Below are positions 76 to 7,194 of a stretch of DNA of 9,131 nt, in pieces; the stretch's first letter is position 1; each line of letters starts with the position of its first letter. Under the pieces are notes generated by a model that had not been told where the DNA came from, ran no database searches, and saw nothing but the letters and a program-made list of their open reading frames with translations. The translations under genes and the position numbers were made by a program. The stretch lies in NCBI RefSeq assembly GCF_003334785.1, contig NZ_QOWV01000034.1. The stretch is one strand, 5' to 3'. The DNA comes from Escherichia coli. Lineage in GTDB: Bacteria; Pseudomonadota; Gammaproteobacteria; Enterobacterales; Enterobacteriaceae.

Positions 76-100
76 TGAACCGCCCCGGGAATCCTGGAGA
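76..100. repeat. Left terminal inverted repeat (IRL) of the IS element
   Basis: 25-bp sequence starting TGAAC, matching the reverse complement of 1361-1385 at 23/25 positions. Confidence 0.8.
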
Positions 101-129
101 CTAAACTTCCTGAGAAAGAGGTAAACAGG

Positions 130-456
130 ATGACTAAAAATACTCGTTTTTCCCCCGAAGTCCGTCAACGGGCAGTCCGTATGGTTCTGGAAAGTCAGAG
201 CGAATATGACTCACAATGGGCGACAATTTGTTCCATTGCTCCAAAGATTGGCTGTACGCCGGAGACTCTGCGTGTCTGGGTTCGCCAGCATGAGCGGGAT
301 ACCGGGGGCGGTGATGGTGGGCTCACCAGCGCTGAACGTCAGCGTCTGAAAGAGCTGGAACGTGAAAATCGTGAACTGCGCCGCAGTAACGATATCCTTC
401 GCCAGGCTTCCGCTTATTTTGCGAAGGCGGAGTTCGACCGCCTCTGGAAAAAATGA
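130..456 (+). CDS. IS3-family transposase OrfA (helix-turn-helix DNA-binding subunit with leucine-zipper-like C-terminus)
   Basis: 108-aa ORF. N-terminal HTH-like segment ([13 protein letters not shown]...[14 protein letters not shown]) and C-terminal heptad-like segment ([27 protein letters not shown]), as in IS3-family OrfA. Ends at the A6 slippery tract. Confidence 0.85.
448..456 (+). other. Candidate programmed -1 ribosomal frameshift / translational coupling site (A6 tract, AAAAAATGA) joining orfA and orfB
   Basis: A6 run at 448-453 directly before the overlapping ATGA. IS3-family elements commonly make an OrfAB fusion by -1 frameshifting on A-rich slippery sites. No downstream structure was evaluated. 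Confidence 0.4.
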
Positions 457-1343
457 TGCCACTGCTGGATAAGCTGCGTGAGCAGTACGGGGTCGGACCG
501 CTATGCAGCGAACTGCATATTGCCCCGTCAACGTATTACCACTGTCAGCAACAGCGACATCATCCGGATAAACGCAGTGCCCGTGCGCAGCGCGATGACT
601 GGCTGAAGAAAGAGATACAGCGCGTATACGATGAAAATCACAAGGTATACGGTGTGCGTAAAGTCTGGCGTCAGTTGTTACGGGAAGGTATCAGAGTGGC
701 CAGATGCACTGTGGCACGTCTCATGGCGGTTATGGGACTTGCCGGTGTTCTCCGGGGTAAAAAGGTCCGTACGACCATCAGCCGGAAAGCCGTTGCCGCA
801 GGCGACCGCGTAAACCGTCAGTTCGTGGCAGAACGACCTGACCAGCTGTGGGTGGCTGATTTTACTTACGTCAGCACATGGCAGGGCTTCGTCTATGTGG
901 CGTTTATCATTGATGTGTTTGCCGGATACATCGTGGGGTGGCGGGTCTCATCGTCTATGGAAACGACATTCGTGCTGGATGCGCTGGAGCAGGCGTTGTG
1001 GGCCCGTCGTCCGTCTGGCACCATCCATCACAGCGATAAAGGCTCTCAGTATGTGTCACTGGCCTATACGGAGCGACTAAAAGAAGCCGGATTACTGGCA
1101 TCAACAGGGAGTACAGGCGACTCGTATGACAACGCGATGGCGGAGAGCATCAATGGTCTTTACAAAGCGGAGGTAATACACCGTAAGAGCTGGAAAAACC
1201 GTGCAGAAGTGGAACTGGCCACACTAACGTGGGTGGACTGGTATAACAATCGACGATTGCTGGGAAGGCTGGGCCATACTCCTCCGGCAGAAGCAGAAAA
1301 AGCTTATTATGCTTCCATCGGAAACGATGATCTGGCAGCCTGA
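453..1343 (+). CDS. IS3-family transposase OrfB (DDE catalytic/integrase-core subunit)
   Basis: 296-aa ORF in the -1 frame relative to orfA. Candidate DDE residues in [16 protein letters not shown] and [13 protein letters not shown] (RNase-H-like transposase core). ATG at 453-455 overlaps orfA stop TGA at 454-456. Confidence 0.85.
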
Positions 1344-1360
1344 GTTCACAGATAAAACAC

Positions 1361-1385
1361 TCTCCAGGAAACCCGGGGCGGTTCA
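1361..1385. repeat. Right terminal inverted repeat (IRR) of the IS element
   Basis: Reverse complement TGAACCGCCCCGGGTTTCCTGGAGA pairs with 76-100; located 18 bp after the orfB stop codon (1341-1343). Confidence 0.8.
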
Positions 1386-1428
1386 TACTGTACGAAGAAA
1401 GAAACTACCGACTTCCGCGGAGATCACA

Positions 1429-1437
1429 TGGTAGAAT
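1429..1437 (+). promoter_or_regulatory. Candidate extended -10 promoter element (TGGTAGAAT) upstream of the 1507-2082 membrane protein gene
   Basis: TGnTAGAAT resembles an extended -10 (TG + TATAAT, 5/6 match) about 70 nt upstream of the ATG at 1507. No convincing -35. A GAGG Shine-Dalgarno lies about 6 nt before the ATG. Sequence-only guess. Confidence 0.25.
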
Positions 1438-1506
1438 GCTATGTGATAAAAAATGAGGTTGTGGTTGCCCGGGCCCAGATTGAAGTTCCCATAAGCTGAG
1501 GTTTTT

Positions 1507-2082
1507 ATGACGCAATCAGAGATGCTGAAATTAATCGCCCGACATGGTTATAACGTTGGATTTGGCGCTAAGAAAAACTTTGCCACCTATGATCTGATTT
1601 GTAAGGCATCCGGTTGGATTAGCTTTATTTCTCTTGCTGTCGGTGTGTTCGCCCTTTTTATTCCTGAGCTGGCCACAAACGTCATTTCCGCGATATTAAT
1701 TATATTTGGTGTTGCTACAATGTACATTCAGTTTTATGACTCGGAAAAGCAGAGTTATGAAAGTGCGGGGATTGAGCAGACCAAAATTTTTAATGAACTT
1801 GAAGTCATCTACCGCAACGTAAAAAGCGATGCAAACTTTGACTATCAGCGTACACAACAATCCATCGACGCTATCATGTCCCGGTTTTACGGCACGGTCA
1901 TCAGCAAACAGATCTTCGGAAGTAACTGGTACGCACATTATAAATTTTACTGTGAATTTGAAAAAGCATGGGTTGAAGAAGAGCTGAACCTGACACTGAA
2001 GGACAAAATCCCGCTTTCGCTCTGCTTTCTCGCCGGTCTGGCGATCATTTTTACTATAGCTGTCATCTGGAAAACGCCCTGA
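1507..2082 (+). CDS. Small multi-pass membrane protein of unknown function (two adjacent N-proximal hydrophobic helices plus a C-terminal one; SLATT-like or Abi-like effector topology is a guess)
   Basis: 191-aa ORF with GAGG RBS. Hydrophobic segments WISFISLAVGVFALFIPEL and ISAILIIFGVATMYIQF (about residues 36-76) and IPLSLCFLAGLAIIFTIAVIW (about 168-188), separated by a charged, presumably soluble ~90-aa region. AT-rich codon usage like the neighbouring defence operon. Confidence 0.7.
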   Translation: MTQSEMLKLIARHGYNVGFGAKKNFATYDLICKASGWISFISLAVGVFALFIPELATNVISAILIIFGVATMYIQFYDSEKQSYESAGIEQTKIFNELEVIYRNVKSDANFDYQRTQQSIDAIMSRFYGTVISKQIFGSNWYAHYKFYCEFEKAWVEEELNLTLKDKIPLSLCFLAGLAIIFTIAVIWKTP

Positions 2083-2634
2083 TGCTGCAGCCAATGAAAA
2101 ATTCAGCAAGCTGACTGTCAAATATGCGATGTATAGCCGGTATCACCATCCAGTGTACGTTCTATAAGGGGGGGCGCTTGGAAAACGGGTAGAGTCAAGA
2201 TGTGGCGCGGTAATTTTACAGGTCAGGCATATCTGTTGCCGCCTCTTTCGATTGGCGGAGCCTTACTGTCCTGACCATAAATCCTGTTTCCACACCCCGC
2301 TCATCGAAGCGGACATGCGCTTCTAACACATCCGGCTCTCGGACAGAATCATGCCTTCGCCCACGGAAACCTCTGCGGGAGCTTCGGTGCATATTTTCAT
2401 GGAAGGGGATCACCCAATAACTTCCATCGAGATCGGGTCATAACGGCCAATCCGTGATCGAATAGAGCGGAATACGCACTCTGACGAACTGCTTACATTT
2501 AAACTAATTACAAACTATATAAATCCGCCTTGCTCATTCACAGGGTAGATATATTCTTACTTTTAATTTTATGTGTAATTAACTGATGACGAAAAATGAA
2601 TTGAACTGTAAATGCATATCTAAGTTTTTCATTC

Positions 2635-3360
2635 TTATGATGTACATAATACCTTAAAATTATCAACTAGCTGAGCATTAACCTCCATCTGACTAATCCC
2701 CCATAATGCGGCTAACTGTTTCTCTGCAATCCCACTATCCCATGGCATTAGTGGGTCATTACGAAACTTAGCAAATGGCCCATCTGTTTCTGTAAGAATG
2801 CGTGATTTGGGTATTTTCAAAACTAAGGCCTTACCCTTTATTGTATCGAGCATAGCAGGCCCCACTGAGAACCAGCATCCTAAATCAATTGCCCTTTCAA
2901 GCTGCTTAGGTGTTCCAGTGAACCAATGCAATATTGCCACCCCATCGATATTTTCAATCTCATCAAGCACCGCTGATGCACTTCCCCGACTATGGATAGT
3001 CATAATCTTGCCACCAGCCCGATTTACACTGTTGAGAATGTGTCGGAACACTTTCAATTGAATATCCCAATGTTCTTTAAATCCCTGTCCACCATCAAGC
3101 CCTATTTCCCCTACATACTTAGTTTCCGAAAGCAATGAATCAAACAGGTCTAACTCATGCGATCTTTGATGCGCGATTTGAGGATGTAGCCCAAGAGCAG
3201 TTCGGATTCGTTGACTTTCTTTAGCCAATAAAGAAGTACCATGCCATGCTTTAGGTGTTGTTGTCACCGACAGAATATAAGTCCCTCGACGTTTACTTTC
3301 TTCAGCCACGAGGTCTGGCCGAGGATATAAGTCTAGATGACAGTGCATATCGATGCTCAT
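2635..3360 (-). CDS. qatD: TatD-family metal-dependent hydrolase/DNase, QatD of a Qat defence system
   Basis: 241-aa ORF beginning MSIDMHCHLDLY (the HxH metal-binding motif that opens TatD-family TIM-barrel hydrolases), with further conserved His/Asp/Glu positions. ATGA start/stop overlap with the upstream QueC-like gene at 3357-3360. Last gene of the operon. Confidence 0.85.
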   Translation of the reverse strand: MSIDMHCHLDLYPRPDLVAEESKRRGTYILSVTTTPKAWHGTSLLAKESQRIRTALGLHPQIAHQRSHELDLFDSLLSETKYVGEIGLDGGQGFKEHWDIQLKVFRHILNSVNRAGGKIMTIHSRGSASAVLDEIENIDGVAILHWFTGTPKQLERAIDLGCWFSVGPAMLDTIKGKALVLKIPKSRILTETDGPFAKFRNDPLMPWDSGIAEKQLAALWGISQMEVNAQLVDNFKVLCTS

Positions 3361-4676
3361 ACTATGTTCTCACTCAGTAAATAGCTTTCAACCTCATCTA
3401 GGCCATCCTTAAATACTTGCTTGAAATTATCAAATTCTGCCGTAGGCAAAGGGCCACTTTTGGCAATCCATGTACCTATTTTCAAAGTCGATTTCTGCGT
3501 GATCGCAATCCTAAGGGCGATCAGGTCGTCCCTGCGATCTATTTCATTCATTACTTTAGCTAAGGACTGGAAAATATATTCAACATCTCTACTAATTCCC
3601 CCTGCATGAAGTGATGCTCGTCGAATGATACACGGTATACATACCCCACATTGCTGCCCCATTCGTTTCCAATGACTGCAGGATACTGTACTTTCCACAA
3701 TTTTAGATAAGAGCTGCTTATTTGAACATTCGGAGATCATTTTTCCTTTTGTCTTAAACTGATATGGATTGATTATTTGACAAGAAATACCGAGCGCATC
3801 AAAGATCTTTTGTATGCTCGTAATAAAATGTGGATGTGTTGTTCGTGTGCTCAGCGAACCTATCCGCCGTGGAGTAAGTGGTGCATTTAATGAGATAAAT
3901 CCATTTTCAGGTACGAACAAATCAATCTTTTCTTGTTGAGATATCTCTTGTACGGCACAAGCACCTACGGCCGCAAGGGCAAGAAAATTGAGGCTACGAG
4001 TTCGCATCGTAATATCAGTCACGCCTTGATAAATGTGTGGGTCAGCATTAATCTCAAAGCGCGAAAATTGGCCACTTAATTTTTCAGCAATCTGATCTTG
4101 ACGAGACTTATCCCCTTTATAAGCATGACTAACCAAAAGTGGAGCGCGCCCTGCAGCCAGAAGATCTATTGCACCAATAGCTGAATCCAGACCTCCTGAA
4201 AATAAGCTGACACAGTCAAGCCCTTTTAGCTTAATCAGACGATGCCTTGAATGCTGGCTATAAGGCTCTGGCGGTGCATAACCATCGTCACAAAATTCGA
4301 AATCCCAGATGTCTCCACTAAGAAAATGCAAAGCACTCTCAAGTTCTTTCTTTAGACTAATCCATCTGGATGGTTCATGAAGGGGGAGTCGTAACGACAA
4401 TTGGCGGGTCCAACCATCCTCGGAACTTTCACGCTGAACGAAAGTATCTGCTGCAGTTACTGCTAATGCAACACTCAGAAAATCCATGACCTTAGCTGGA
4501 AGCTGTACTCCCAAACGTCTGATCCGATCAATCGCAGGATTCCCGATAACAGATATATCTCCGCGCCTCTGACCACTTAATCCATATAGCTGAACAGGTA
4601 ACACTTTCTCACTTGCTGGCGGCAAATGGTGATGTTTATGATGGAAAACTAATTGTGTCACTGGTATGCCTCCCAT
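3357..4676 (-). CDS. qatC: QueC-like PP-loop ATPase (7-cyano-7-deazaguanine synthase family) with an N-terminal extension, QatC
   Basis: 439-aa ORF. PP-loop motif SGGLDS at residues 160-165 (nt 4182-4199, minus strand). C-terminal cysteine cluster CSHWKRMGQQCGVCIPC resembling the QueC zinc site. Operon context with KAP NTPase and TatD. Confidence 0.8.
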   Translation of the reverse strand: MGGIPVTQLVFHHKHHHLPPASEKVLPVQLYGLSGQRRGDISVIGNPAIDRIRRLGVQLPAKVMDFLSVALAVTAADTFVQRESSEDGWTRQLSLRLPLHEPSRWISLKKELESALHFLSGDIWDFEFCDDGYAPPEPYSQHSRHRLIKLKGLDCVSLFSGGLDSAIGAIDLLAAGRAPLLVSHAYKGDKSRQDQIAEKLSGQFSRFEINADPHIYQGVTDITMRTRSLNFLALAAVGACAVQEISQQEKIDLFVPENGFISLNAPLTPRRIGSLSTRTTHPHFITSIQKIFDALGISCQIINPYQFKTKGKMISECSNKQLLSKIVESTVSCSHWKRMGQQCGVCIPCIIRRASLHAGGISRDVEYIFQSLAKVMNEIDRRDDLIALRIAITQKSTLKIGTWIAKSGPLPTAEFDNFKQVFKDGLDEVESYLLSENIV

Positions 4677-5410
4677 TCTTGCCAGGCCTCAATAATGGCC
4701 TGACGTTCAATTTTTACCATTTGGTTTCGTGTGAACGATCTTATGTTACCGGCAAGTTTTGGTGCCATATGTTTATCAACAACAACTTTAATCAATTCCC
4801 GGAGTTCAATTTCTGCATGAATTGCCTTTGAAGGTGTATCTGCTTTGTTCCATGCCCTATTAGAATCCATTACCATCTGAAGGAAAATACTTTCCGCTAG
4901 ATAACCAATCATTGTGTCAACAATCAAACCATCAGTTATTTTTTGAGGATCGAAAATTTCTACGCCATCAAGAGCCTCCACTAAAGCATGGTTCATGGCC
5001 GCACAGATCTTTTCTGAGTCACCATCCTGTGATGTTAAAGCTTGAGCAATAGTTGATATTGCTATTTCGCATGGAAGGCCTGCCAAACTGCCCAAATCGA
5101 TGCTTGGTTCTCCGGGAGCCGAAGGCATTCCCACTAAAGCCCCAAATAATTCGGCCCCAGCTTGCGTGACACTCCCTAATCGCCGAGCAGCGTTACTGCT
5201 CCCTCCGGAGGCTTTTCGCGCGTAGTGCCCTATGGCTTTTCTGAAATCTGCTCGATTTCCATTTGATACCGCATTTCCCAACGATTCTCGAAATGGCGCA
5301 AACCTCCTTTCTTGCGGCGAGGGTAACGGTTGCTGTGGCTGATCATCAGCCCATGGTGGAACCAGCGGAGAGCCACCTCCTGGACCTTTACTTGATTGTG
5401 ATGTTCCCAT
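4658..5410 (-). CDS. qatB: QatB, protein of unknown function (Gly/Pro/Ser-rich N-terminal ~100 aa followed by a helical domain)
   Basis: 250-aa ORF between the KAP NTPase and QueC-like genes. Start ATG shares one nucleotide with the qatA stop (TAATG at 5408-5412) and the 3' end overlaps the qatC start by 19 nt. Assignment is by operon position; no motif recognised. Confidence 0.6.
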   Translation of the reverse strand: MGTSQSSKGPGGGSPLVPPWADDQPQQPLPSPQERRFAPFRESLGNAVSNGNRADFRKAIGHYARKASGGSSNAARRLGSVTQAGAELFGALVGMPSAPGEPSIDLGSLAGLPCEIAISTIAQALTSQDGDSEKICAAMNHALVEALDGVEIFDPQKITDGLIVDTMIGYLAESIFLQMVMDSNRAWNKADTPSKAIHAEIELRELIKVVVDKHMAPKLAGNIRSFTRNQMVKIERQAIIEAWQEWEAYQ

Positions 5411-7194
5411 TAAGCGTCCTTATTCCATTGTTCATCTTTTAATGCTGCAGTCATCCACGCTGGTCGTTTCATCCCCAACTGTAATTCCTGTAGATAACGA
5501 ATTAATATGCTGGCTGCATCTGTTGAGTAGCGGGCCAACAGACATGCGCCGGAAAAGCCTCTGGGCTTACGATCCCAATCTGATACCTGCCGTAACTGGT
5601 TAATTAAACCTTCCATTACAGGTATTTGCTCCTCACGAGGAAGTGCTTTCAAAAGGTTTTCTGCTGTAGGAGAACTAGTGTTTTTCAATTCAATTAGTGC
5701 ATTTAGTACTTCCCGTCCAGATGGCGATAAACCAACCACATATGCACCTATTGGCATAGTTTCTCGGGACAGATATATGGCGGCCCTTAAGTCAATCCCA
5801 CCAAGACGAGGTTCAAGTTGGGCCCATTGACTGATGAAAGATTTAGTCGTTGGACTATCAGTCCATGTCTTTGGTGCATCAGTAGGTATTTGACCGCCAT
5901 TATCGTCAAGCTGTTTAAGTATCTGGGGAACACCTTGTTCAATATCCACGAGATGATATAAATCAGCGGTGCCATCCACTCCAACACAGCGTTCAAAAAT
6001 TACTAGCTTAGTAATAATTGCTTCATCCAAAGGCATTGCTCGTCGCTTCGCAATTTGAGATCGCATTTTCACAACATTCAACAAGCGTTTAACGATCCTG
6101 GGATTACCATGAATAATTGGAGAGTTGGCTAAAATGGGAGCAATACGGTCAGCACGCGCAAACGCCAGCGCGAGGTTGCTATCATCCGCTTCACCAGTCA
6201 TTTTTAAGGCCTCCTGACGTGAGATTGGTTCATCTTTCCAGGATTGCTGTAACGCCTTCTCTAAGCCCTCACGGAGCATAGTTATTTTTTCGCCTTCTAA
6301 GCCATGTTCAATGGCATAAAGCATGAACAGATACGAACGGATCTCACGGACCCCAGCCTTAGGCACCCGAATAGGAACCTGGATTAGCTTATCCAGATAA
6401 TCTATTTGATGGCGCTGTGATGCCCCTTTGAAGTAATCAGCCACAGAAGAGCGAATCATGTCCTCATCTGCTGCAATAATAAAGGCTGTATTAGTCAAGA
6501 AAAGGAATAGCCTGATAGCTTCAAGTGTATGGATAGCATTGGCAGGGAGACAGCGGTCTAGGTTATCTATTACCACAATGAGTGGCTTTCCAAGTTCTTC
6601 TAGAATTTCCCCATATTCCTTACGAAAGGCATCAATCTGCTGAGGGGGGCTTTTTTTTGTTTGTGGTTTAATCAAACCACAAGCAGTTTCTTTACCTTCT
6701 TTAGCTATATTGCCTAAAGCCTCATACTCTTCCTGGCTCTGGATGCCATCGGTGATATTTCTTAATGCACCAATCCCCCTAGAAAGCAAACCGCCAGTAG
6801 GTAATCCTGCCATTAAAGCTGTACCCTCAGCTAGTAATCCCATAGCTCTAAAACCATCAACTCGACTAAGGAGTCTCTTAGTTTTTGATATAAGGGTAGA
6901 ATTACCTTCAGCAGCTTTTGTCAATTCTGTAGCGATGACTTCAAGAAGTGCGGCACGGGCGTCGTCGTACCCCTGATAGAGCCAAGAGTCAAAATTGATA
7001 ACAATCCAATCTTTGTCGTCTTGCTCAAGTTTTTGCTCTATCAGTTTTAACAGAGAGGATTTACCTGCCCCCCAGTTTCCAAAAATTCCGATAGATACTG
7101 GTAACATATCTTTCGTGGTAAGTACATCCACGGCTAACTGAGATACTTCACCAAAATTTAGGTAGTCTTCTGATGACTCTTTGTCTGACCACAT
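5410..7194 (-). CDS. qatA: KAP-family P-loop NTPase, QatA
   Basis: 594-aa ORF. Walker A GNWGAGKSS at residues 39-47 (nt 7057-7080). Walker B-like PLIVVIDNLDRC, the hhhhDxLDR signature typical of KAP NTPases. AAGGAT RBS 6 nt upstream of ATG. First gene of the four-gene operon. Confidence 0.8.
   Translation of the reverse strand: MWSDKESSEDYLNFGEVSQLAVDVLTTKDMLPVSIGIFGNWGAGKSSLLKLIEQKLEQDDKDWIVINFDSWLYQGYDDARAALLEVIATELTKAAEGNSTLISKTKRLLSRVDGFRAMGLLAEGTALMAGLPTGGLLSRGIGALRNITDGIQSQEEYEALGNIAKEGKETACGLIKPQTKKSPPQQIDAFRKEYGEILEELGKPLIVVIDNLDRCLPANAIHTLEAIRLFLFLTNTAFIIAADEDMIRSSVADYFKGASQRHQIDYLDKLIQVPIRVPKAGVREIRSYLFMLYAIEHGLEGEKITMLREGLEKALQQSWKDEPISRQEALKMTGEADDSNLALAFARADRIAPILANSPIIHGNPRIVKRLLNVVKMRSQIAKRRAMPLDEAIITKLVIFERCVGVDGTADLYHLVDIEQGVPQILKQLDDNGGQIPTDAPKTWTDSPTTKSFISQWAQLEPRLGGIDLRAAIYLSRETMPIGAYVVGLSPSGREVLNALIELKNTSSPTAENLLKALPREEQIPVMEGLINQLRQVSDWDRKPRGFSGACLLARYSTDAASILIRYLQELQLGMKRPAWMTAALKDEQWNKDA

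Follow-up and report, generated by a model that had tools for sequence, protein, structure and literature searches.

An orphaned SLATT_6 membrane effector beside a Qat operon of Escherichia coli is the remnant of a type I CBASS operon

Introduction

The SLATT_6 family was reportedly defined by Burroughs et al. in 2015 as an SMODS- and SLOG-associated 2TM effector. In a type I CBASS operon, an effector gene adjoins an intact CD-NTase (cyclase) gene, and cap2/cap3 and HORMA/TRIP13 genes are absent. Richmond-Buccola et al. cloned 17 such operons, including EcCdnF04-SLATT6 and EcCdnF05-SLATT6 from E. coli BIDMC103, the cyclases of which carry AGS-C fusions; strong phage defence was reported for these two E. 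coli operons, with EcCdnF04-SLATT6 restricting phages from five families by at least 10,000-fold, and in vitro no clade F enzyme was seen to yield a nucleotide product (10.1101/2023.05.21.541620). SLATT6 is among the common membrane effectors of CBASS (PMC12480259).

Several other CBASS effectors, namely Cap15 (2TM plus a β-barrel), 2TM-SAVED/Cap14 and the 4TM effectors, appear to share a common logic with SLATT_6, in which a cyclic nucleotide would activate a membrane effector and the infection would be aborted. The mechanism of Cap15, a membrane-anchored effector that is activated by a cyclic nucleotide and disrupts the membrane, is said to have been described by Duncan-Lowey et al. in 2021. 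The 2TM-SAVED effector is harmless alone and kills only with a signal supplied by its cyclase. Members of the same SLATT superfamily, the SLATT_5 effectors, serve the reverse transcriptase (RT) defence systems DRT10/UG17 and DRT3, where their partners are a reverse transcriptase and a non-coding RNA.

Here, we analysed a 9,131-nucleotide stretch of E. coli DNA (contig NZ_QOWV01000034.1 of assembly GCF_003334785.1; hereafter, the window), in which the gene of a small membrane protein faces a Qat operon (Table 1). A sequence-only reading of the window had presented this gene as either an independent single-gene defence or toxin module or unrelated cargo. We find instead that it represents one half, the effector, of a type I CBASS operon of two genes.

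Table 1 Features of the window and their coordinates
Feature	Position	Strand	Remarks
IS30 transposase gene fragment	1–75	−	Translation LSEREEIRAGLSAKMSIRAIATALN; abuts the left end of IS629
IS629 (IS3 family)	76–1385	+	1310 bp; same orientation as the SLATT gene; right end coincides with the cyclase breakpoint
IS629 terminal inverted repeats	76–100 and 1361–1385		25 nt, 92% complementary
IS629 orfA	130–456	+	From the ORF list
ALIL frameshift pseudoknot in IS629	411–527		Rfam, 120 bits
IS629 orfB	453–1343	+	From the ORF list
Cyclase 3′ remnant (SMODS + AGS-C CD-NTase)	1386–1499	+	114 nt; last 37 codons and stop
SLATT_6 gene	1507–2082	+	ATG start; 191 aa; CBASS membrane effector; profile matches
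SLATT–qatD spacer	2083–2634	.	552 bp, non-coding; conserved with the island; no Rfam match
qatDCBA operon	2635–7194	−	Separate, complete Qat system; converges on the SLATT gene
qatD	2635–3360	−	Convergent with the SLATT gene, 552 bp apart
Hypothetical ORF, 373 aa	7326–8447	−	Directly upstream of qatA, same strand; most AT-rich part (29–36% G+C)
126-aa ORF	8686–9066	−	VasL-domain protein in RefSeq homologous loci

Results

The gene encodes a full-length SLATT_6 protein

The protein encoded in the window is intact and identical to RefSeq WP_000194394.1, an accession that is annotated in both intact and orphan loci, and its start codon is preceded at a distance of 7 nt by a Shine-Dalgarno-like GAGG motif, a good ribosome-binding site. 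It matches the Pfam SLATT_6 model (PF18169) at model positions 1–173 of 176 (E 5.6e-63), the NCBIfam model NF033630 with 223.8 bits, where the curated cutoff is 100 (residues 1–174 on model positions 1–177 of 180), and the PADLOC CBASS model "Effector 2TM" (PDLC00695, E 1.8e-82). The SLATT-type resemblance suspected in the sequence-only reading is thus true homology, and a comparison with the SLATT families, which it had proposed, puts the SLATT_6 match far above threshold. The match to SLATT_5 is marginal (E 7.9e-4 for Pfam and E 6.8e-5 for NCBIfam), the SLATT_6 match being about 60 orders of magnitude stronger. SLATT_5 effectors have an RT and a non-coding RNA as partners, whereas the partner here is a nucleotide cyclase, and no reverse transcriptase ORF, the mark of the RT-SLATT (DRT10/UG17) systems, stands next to the SLATT gene in the window. 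All three defining features of SLATT_6 that we tested, namely a full-length profile match, two closely spaced transmembrane helices and association with an SMODS cyclase, were found, and the protein displays no substantive difference from the family.

The Kyte-Doolittle hydropathy profile, calculated with a 19-aa window, contains a long hydrophobic block (windows starting at residues 30–59, peak 2.11) that is split by a short loop, P53-E-L-A-T57, into a hairpin of helices at about residues 35–53 and 58–77. It is followed by a charged cytoplasmic segment (residues 78–167, 11 K/R and 15 D/E) and by a C-terminal hydrophobic helix (residues 170–188, peak 2.53). The AlphaFold2 model, for which 24 sequences were aligned, is all-helical (helices 3–51, 58–75 and 170–189) and has a mean pLDDT of 88.6; hydropathy and model agree with the 191-residue layout of the sequence-only reading, which had an N-proximal transmembrane hairpin, a charged region of about 90 residues and a C-terminal helix. 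The distribution of charges suggests that the N-terminus faces in and the C-terminus out. The third, C-terminal hydrophobic helix is barely covered by the Pfam SLATT_6 model, the end of which is reached at residue 173, and is found in 78/78 evaluable SLATT_6 homologues. The predicted three-helix layout is a trait of the SLATT_6 family, although the family name says "2TM".

Structural neighbours of the model in AFDB50 are all annotated as SLATT proteins. A PDB sequence search with the family profile returned no relative, and the best Foldseek match in the PDB was not below E 0.4, so that no solved structure resembles the protein. Unlike Cap15, 2TM-SAVED and the 4TM effectors, the SLATT protein of the window has no SAVED domain, β-barrel or other recognised nucleotide-sensor domain; its soluble part is a helical region of about 90 residues that has no solved structural relative.

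There are 854 database homologues at E ≤ 0.001 and 36 invariant columns in the 24-sequence alignment, in which identity falls to 44%, and these place the coding reality of the SLATT gene far beyond chance. Two motifs remain near-invariant down to 44% identity: G14-YNVGFGAKKxFATYD-29, which precedes the hairpin, and S133-KQIFGSNWYAHYKF-147 (SKQIFGSNWYAHYKF) in the soluble region. These conserved cytoplasmic motifs readily suggest themselves as candidates for a surface of ligand binding or oligomerisation. Two other ORFs of this region, a 141-aa ORF antisense to the gene (1696–2121, minus strand) and a 65-aa ORF in the spacer (2216–2413, minus strand; no NCBIfam match), were treated as spurious.

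A prophage holin, or another housekeeping membrane protein, could have the same small multi-TM architecture, and one PHROG match (phrog_23029, E 2.7e-37) points towards phages. As phrog_23029, like every PHROG matched, is of unknown function and outside the lysis category, as there is no lysis cassette or other phage gene around, the neighbours being IS elements and Qat, and as the SLATT_6 match and the cyclase linkage fully account for the protein, such an identity has virtually no probability.

IS629 ends where the cyclase remnant begins

The sequence-only reading missed the 114-nt remnant at 1386–1499 and the IS629 element that ends exactly there. The translation of the remnant, YCTKKETTDFRGDHMVECYVIKNEVVVARAQIEVPIS*, is identical to the C-terminus (residues 406–442 of 442) of the protein encoded at L001:7786–9114, the partner of the SLATT protein in the intact locus of another E. 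coli strain. The window lacks the catalytic SMODS domain and the greater part of the AGS-C domain. The DNA of the window is identical to that of the intact locus from position 1386 on and unrelated to it before, which puts the breakpoint at 1385/1386. RefSeq annotates a homologous remnant as an N-terminally truncated pseudogene and names the homologous IS copy "IS3-like element IS629 family transposase".

No target-site duplication surrounds IS629, the flanking bases being CAG and TAC. The left flank is IS30 DNA, not cyclase DNA, and in the homologous locus of strain WS4437A-1 a truncated IS30 transposase gene is likewise annotated immediately left of IS629. A simple insertion of IS629 into the cyclase gene was rejected in favour of a deletion or rearrangement on account of the left flank and the lack of a duplication, and no precursor of such an insertion came to light either: the only other E. 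coli genome with an IS in this gene, AHB12, has it at a different site near the 5′ end. The cyclase was lost through such an IS629-associated event, which orphaned the effector. Lacking the intact CD-NTase gene that a type I CBASS operon has, the window holds a CBASS remnant and not a functional type I CBASS.

A scan of the plus strand from the end of IS629 to the SLATT ATG returned no σ70-like promoter, and an Rfam scan of the whole window returned only the ALIL element of IS629, with no RNA element near the SLATT gene. The region left of the remnant is a pile-up of nested IS fragments (IS3, IS30 and IS629), to which sister strains add a group II intron or IS66.

The intact locus is a two-gene type I CBASS operon

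The intact locus is that of E. coli strain BS74R-D (L001), in which the cyclase gene ends 7 nt before the SLATT start codon on the same strand. Its 442-aa product, WP_000019626.1, consists of an SMODS nucleotidyltransferase domain (residues 1–161) and an AGS-C domain (residues 313–442), matches the PADLOC Cyclase model PDLC00796 (E 9.4e-177) and is annotated in intact strains as a "nucleotide-binding domain-containing protein". The two genes lie between IS fragments and Qat, and no ancillary CBASS genes are annotated; with an effector that adjoins a cyclase and neither cap2/cap3 nor HORMA/TRIP13 genes, the locus has the make-up of a type I CBASS. In BS74R-D, CBASS and Qat share an island that adjoins genes for a tRNA-Phe and an integrase.

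In architecture, this intact form fits the description of EcCdnF04-SLATT6 and EcCdnF05-SLATT6 exactly: the species is the same, as are the two genes (an AGS-C-fused CD-NTase and SLATT6), and ancillary genes are absent. Judging by this architecture (E. coli, AGS-C fusion, SLATT6), the partner cyclase would be a clade F CD-NTase. The window differs from these operons in that the cyclase has been deleted except for 37 codons.

The residues of the nucleotidyltransferase signature (G53-S54, D66, D68 and E125) are invariant in 75 partner cyclases. The third acidic position of the active site is thus a glutamate, E125, throughout this set; in CD-NTases, this residue is usually an aspartate. One may speculate that E125 might bear on the absence of an in vitro product for clade F enzymes.

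SLATT_6 and the cyclase are neighbours across bacterial phyla

To extend the comparison beyond E. coli, one genome per GTDB species was scanned with conserved peptides of the SLATT alignment, which yielded 80 loci from phyla including Proteobacteria, Bacillota, Cyanobacteria, Bacteroidota, Verrucomicrobia and Spirochaetes. These loci were screened for the cyclase and for Qat only; within that scope, no endolysin or spanin genes came to light in them. In a tblastn search with the E. coli cyclase, a homologue adjoined the SLATT gene on the same strand in 79/80 loci, with an identity to the query of 36–76%; in the single exception, the SLATT gene lies at a contig end. The cyclase gene is upstream in 59 and downstream in 19 of the 78 loci with an evaluable SLATT ORF, and always on the same strand. 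SLATT_6 and the cyclase are therefore near-obligate neighbours across bacterial phyla. A QatA, B, C or D homologue within 6 kb was found in none of the 80 loci.

The neighbourhood analysis that the sequence-only reading had called for thus turns up a CBASS cyclase as the conserved partner, and neither Qat nor a stand-alone gene. A stand-alone abortive-infection or toxin module that needs no partner is what one might expect of a small membrane protein encoded in a defence island, in a window that has no intact partner gene; we regard this as very unlikely, considering (i) the remnant of the partner that is physically present at 1386–1499, (ii) the adjacent partner in 79/80 other species and in 258 E. 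coli genomes, and (iii) the Pfam name, which defines the family as a cyclase-associated effector.

Among complete E. coli genomes, the orphan junction occurs in three closely related ones

The region was compared by megablast with 5426 complete E. coli genomes, and most matching strains align only from window position 1386 onward. The cyclase–SLATT pair gave a match of any length in 272/5426 genomes and a match over at least 80% of its length in 258/5426, CFT073 and the type strain ATCC 11775 being among the carriers; the Qat operon of the window is present in 259/5426 and the SLATT–spacer–qatD stretch in about 246/5426. The exact junction of IS629 and the remnant occurs in only three of the 5426 complete genomes, those of strains 300709, TW10722 and WS4437A-1, all of which are from human stool, closely related and of the ETEC lineage. 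Their SLATT protein is that of intact operons (WP_000194394.1), an identity that would fit a recent orphaning event. None of the three is like the window in all details: in TW10722, a group II intron lies inside IS629, and WS4437A-1 and 300709 have an IS66 in the spacer.

E. coli chromosomes almost always have the CBASS pair and Qat side by side, within one island next to a tRNA-Phe gene. Conjugative E. coli plasmids of about 40 kb carry the pair at 96.8% identity, beside HEPN genes and without Qat, and thus in another kind of defence island. On plasmid pVE-V10-F_3 (L003, 8001–12286), two HEPN-domain genes follow the pair in the same direction, and DinQ-like type I toxin genes surround it.

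Qat is a co-located but separate system

All four genes of the operon that converges on the SLATT gene match their PADLOC models (QatD, E 5.8e-97; QatC, E 1.1e-140; QatB, E 2.3e-130; QatA, E 0). The G+C content of the SLATT gene is about 41–42%, close to the 40–45% of the Qat genes, and that of IS629 is 52–56%. This bears out the compositional match to Qat noted in the sequence-only reading, and the two are indeed convergent; the single AT-rich block in which it had placed them is, however, not continuous, as the spacer between the SLATT gene and qatD includes a stretch of about 51% G+C.

We considered the possibility that the SLATT protein is an accessory membrane effector of Qat, acquired and functioning together with qatABCD. 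Apart from the similar G+C content, this idea draws on the conserved 552-bp spacer, which joins the SLATT gene to qatD in about 246 genomes of E. coli. It is extremely improbable given that not one of the 80 SLATT_6 loci of other species has a QatA–D homologue within 6 kb, that the plasmid-borne cyclase–SLATT pairs of E. coli lack Qat, that the convergent orientation leaves no shared transcript, and that IS66 sits in the separating spacer in sister strains. The absence of Qat near related loci and from the plasmids identifies the two as co-located cargo and not as one system, and conserved co-occurrence of the SLATT gene with qatABCD was not found. The functional independence from Qat that the sequence-only reading allowed for is thereby supported; the joint acquisition that it proposed holds only within limits, as the two systems are seen to be linked on E. 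coli chromosomes but not in other species.

The spacer occurs in full in 244 genomes and is a hot spot for IS66 in sister strains, with an IS66 (ISCro1) inserted in WS4437A-1 and 300709. A 35–36-nt element of the spacer (about 2445–2481) is found again, with 95–100% identity, on hundreds of chromosomes and plasmids of E. coli. In two contexts examined, it was situated immediately outside IS21-like or IS66-like elements, and it probably represents an IS-end scar.

Two ORFs beyond qatA complete the window. The hypothetical 373-aa ORF contains a perfect 9-nt tandem repeat, TCAGCAACC, in 5.8 copies (7414–7465), which encodes (AEV)n; the BS74R-D allele has 472 residues and differs essentially by about 99 extra residues at the repeat. 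With a weak PADLOC match to PD-Lambda-4_B (E 3.6e-6), this ORF could be a defence gene in its own right, with a repeat of the contingency type. The VasL-domain ORF adjoins other degraded type VI secretion genes in homologous loci, and the island contains T6SS remnants.

Discussion

Combining these findings, we propose that the gene very probably encodes the SLATT_6 effector of a minimal type I CBASS, the cyclase of which was deleted via IS629, and that it is most likely an inert, recent remnant functionally unrelated to Qat. In the intact operon, infection would activate the cGAS/DncV-like nucleotidyltransferase that is encoded upstream and carries the C-terminal AGS-C domain. The activated cyclase would then make a nucleotide second messenger, which may bind to the cytoplasmic part of the SLATT protein, where the two conserved motifs are located. 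Held in the inner membrane by its helical hairpin and C-terminal anchor, the SLATT protein would oligomerise and damage that membrane, possibly by pore formation or depolarisation, and the infected cell would die or arrest before phage release, so that the infection is aborted.

The window no longer has the signal generator, and the plus strand upstream of the gene displays no promoter-like site; the effector is thus most probably silent or unactivatable, and we infer that the orphan is most likely inert. It could still be functional if read-through from IS629 expressed it and another CD-NTase or cyclase activated it in trans, which would leave it with some defensive or toxic activity. Consistent with this, the ORF has no defects and its product is identical to that of intact operons, a good ribosome-binding site has been kept, IS629 lies upstream in the same orientation, and CBASS effectors are known to pass from one cyclase to another. 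We nevertheless consider residual function unlikely. The junction is found in three closely related genomes only, where intactness may simply reflect recency, and no promoter-like site precedes the gene on its strand. Furthermore, 79/80 homologues keep their own adjacent cyclase, which argues for the need of a cognate partner, and another CBASS membrane effector, 2TM-SAVED, has no effect on growth when alone. It is more doubtful still that the orphan SLATT6, transcribed from IS629, has been wired to another cyclase or to a phage-derived nucleotide, or that the adjacency of CBASS and Qat amounts to functional cooperation.

The type of system that decayed here, a type I CBASS, is already known: it has been described and experimentally validated, and in RefSeq the protein already figures as a SLATT domain protein and the remnant as a truncated pseudogene. 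Defence-system finders would report Qat in this region and pass over the SLATT gene, and an unwary reader could take that gene for a new single-gene toxin or for a missing Qat effector. Once it is recognised as a CBASS effector that IS629 has orphaned, neither misreading arises, and the value of the finding lies mainly in annotation. With three ETEC-lineage genomes set against 258 that have an intact pair, the locus also provides a small, dated example of how IS elements erode defence islands.
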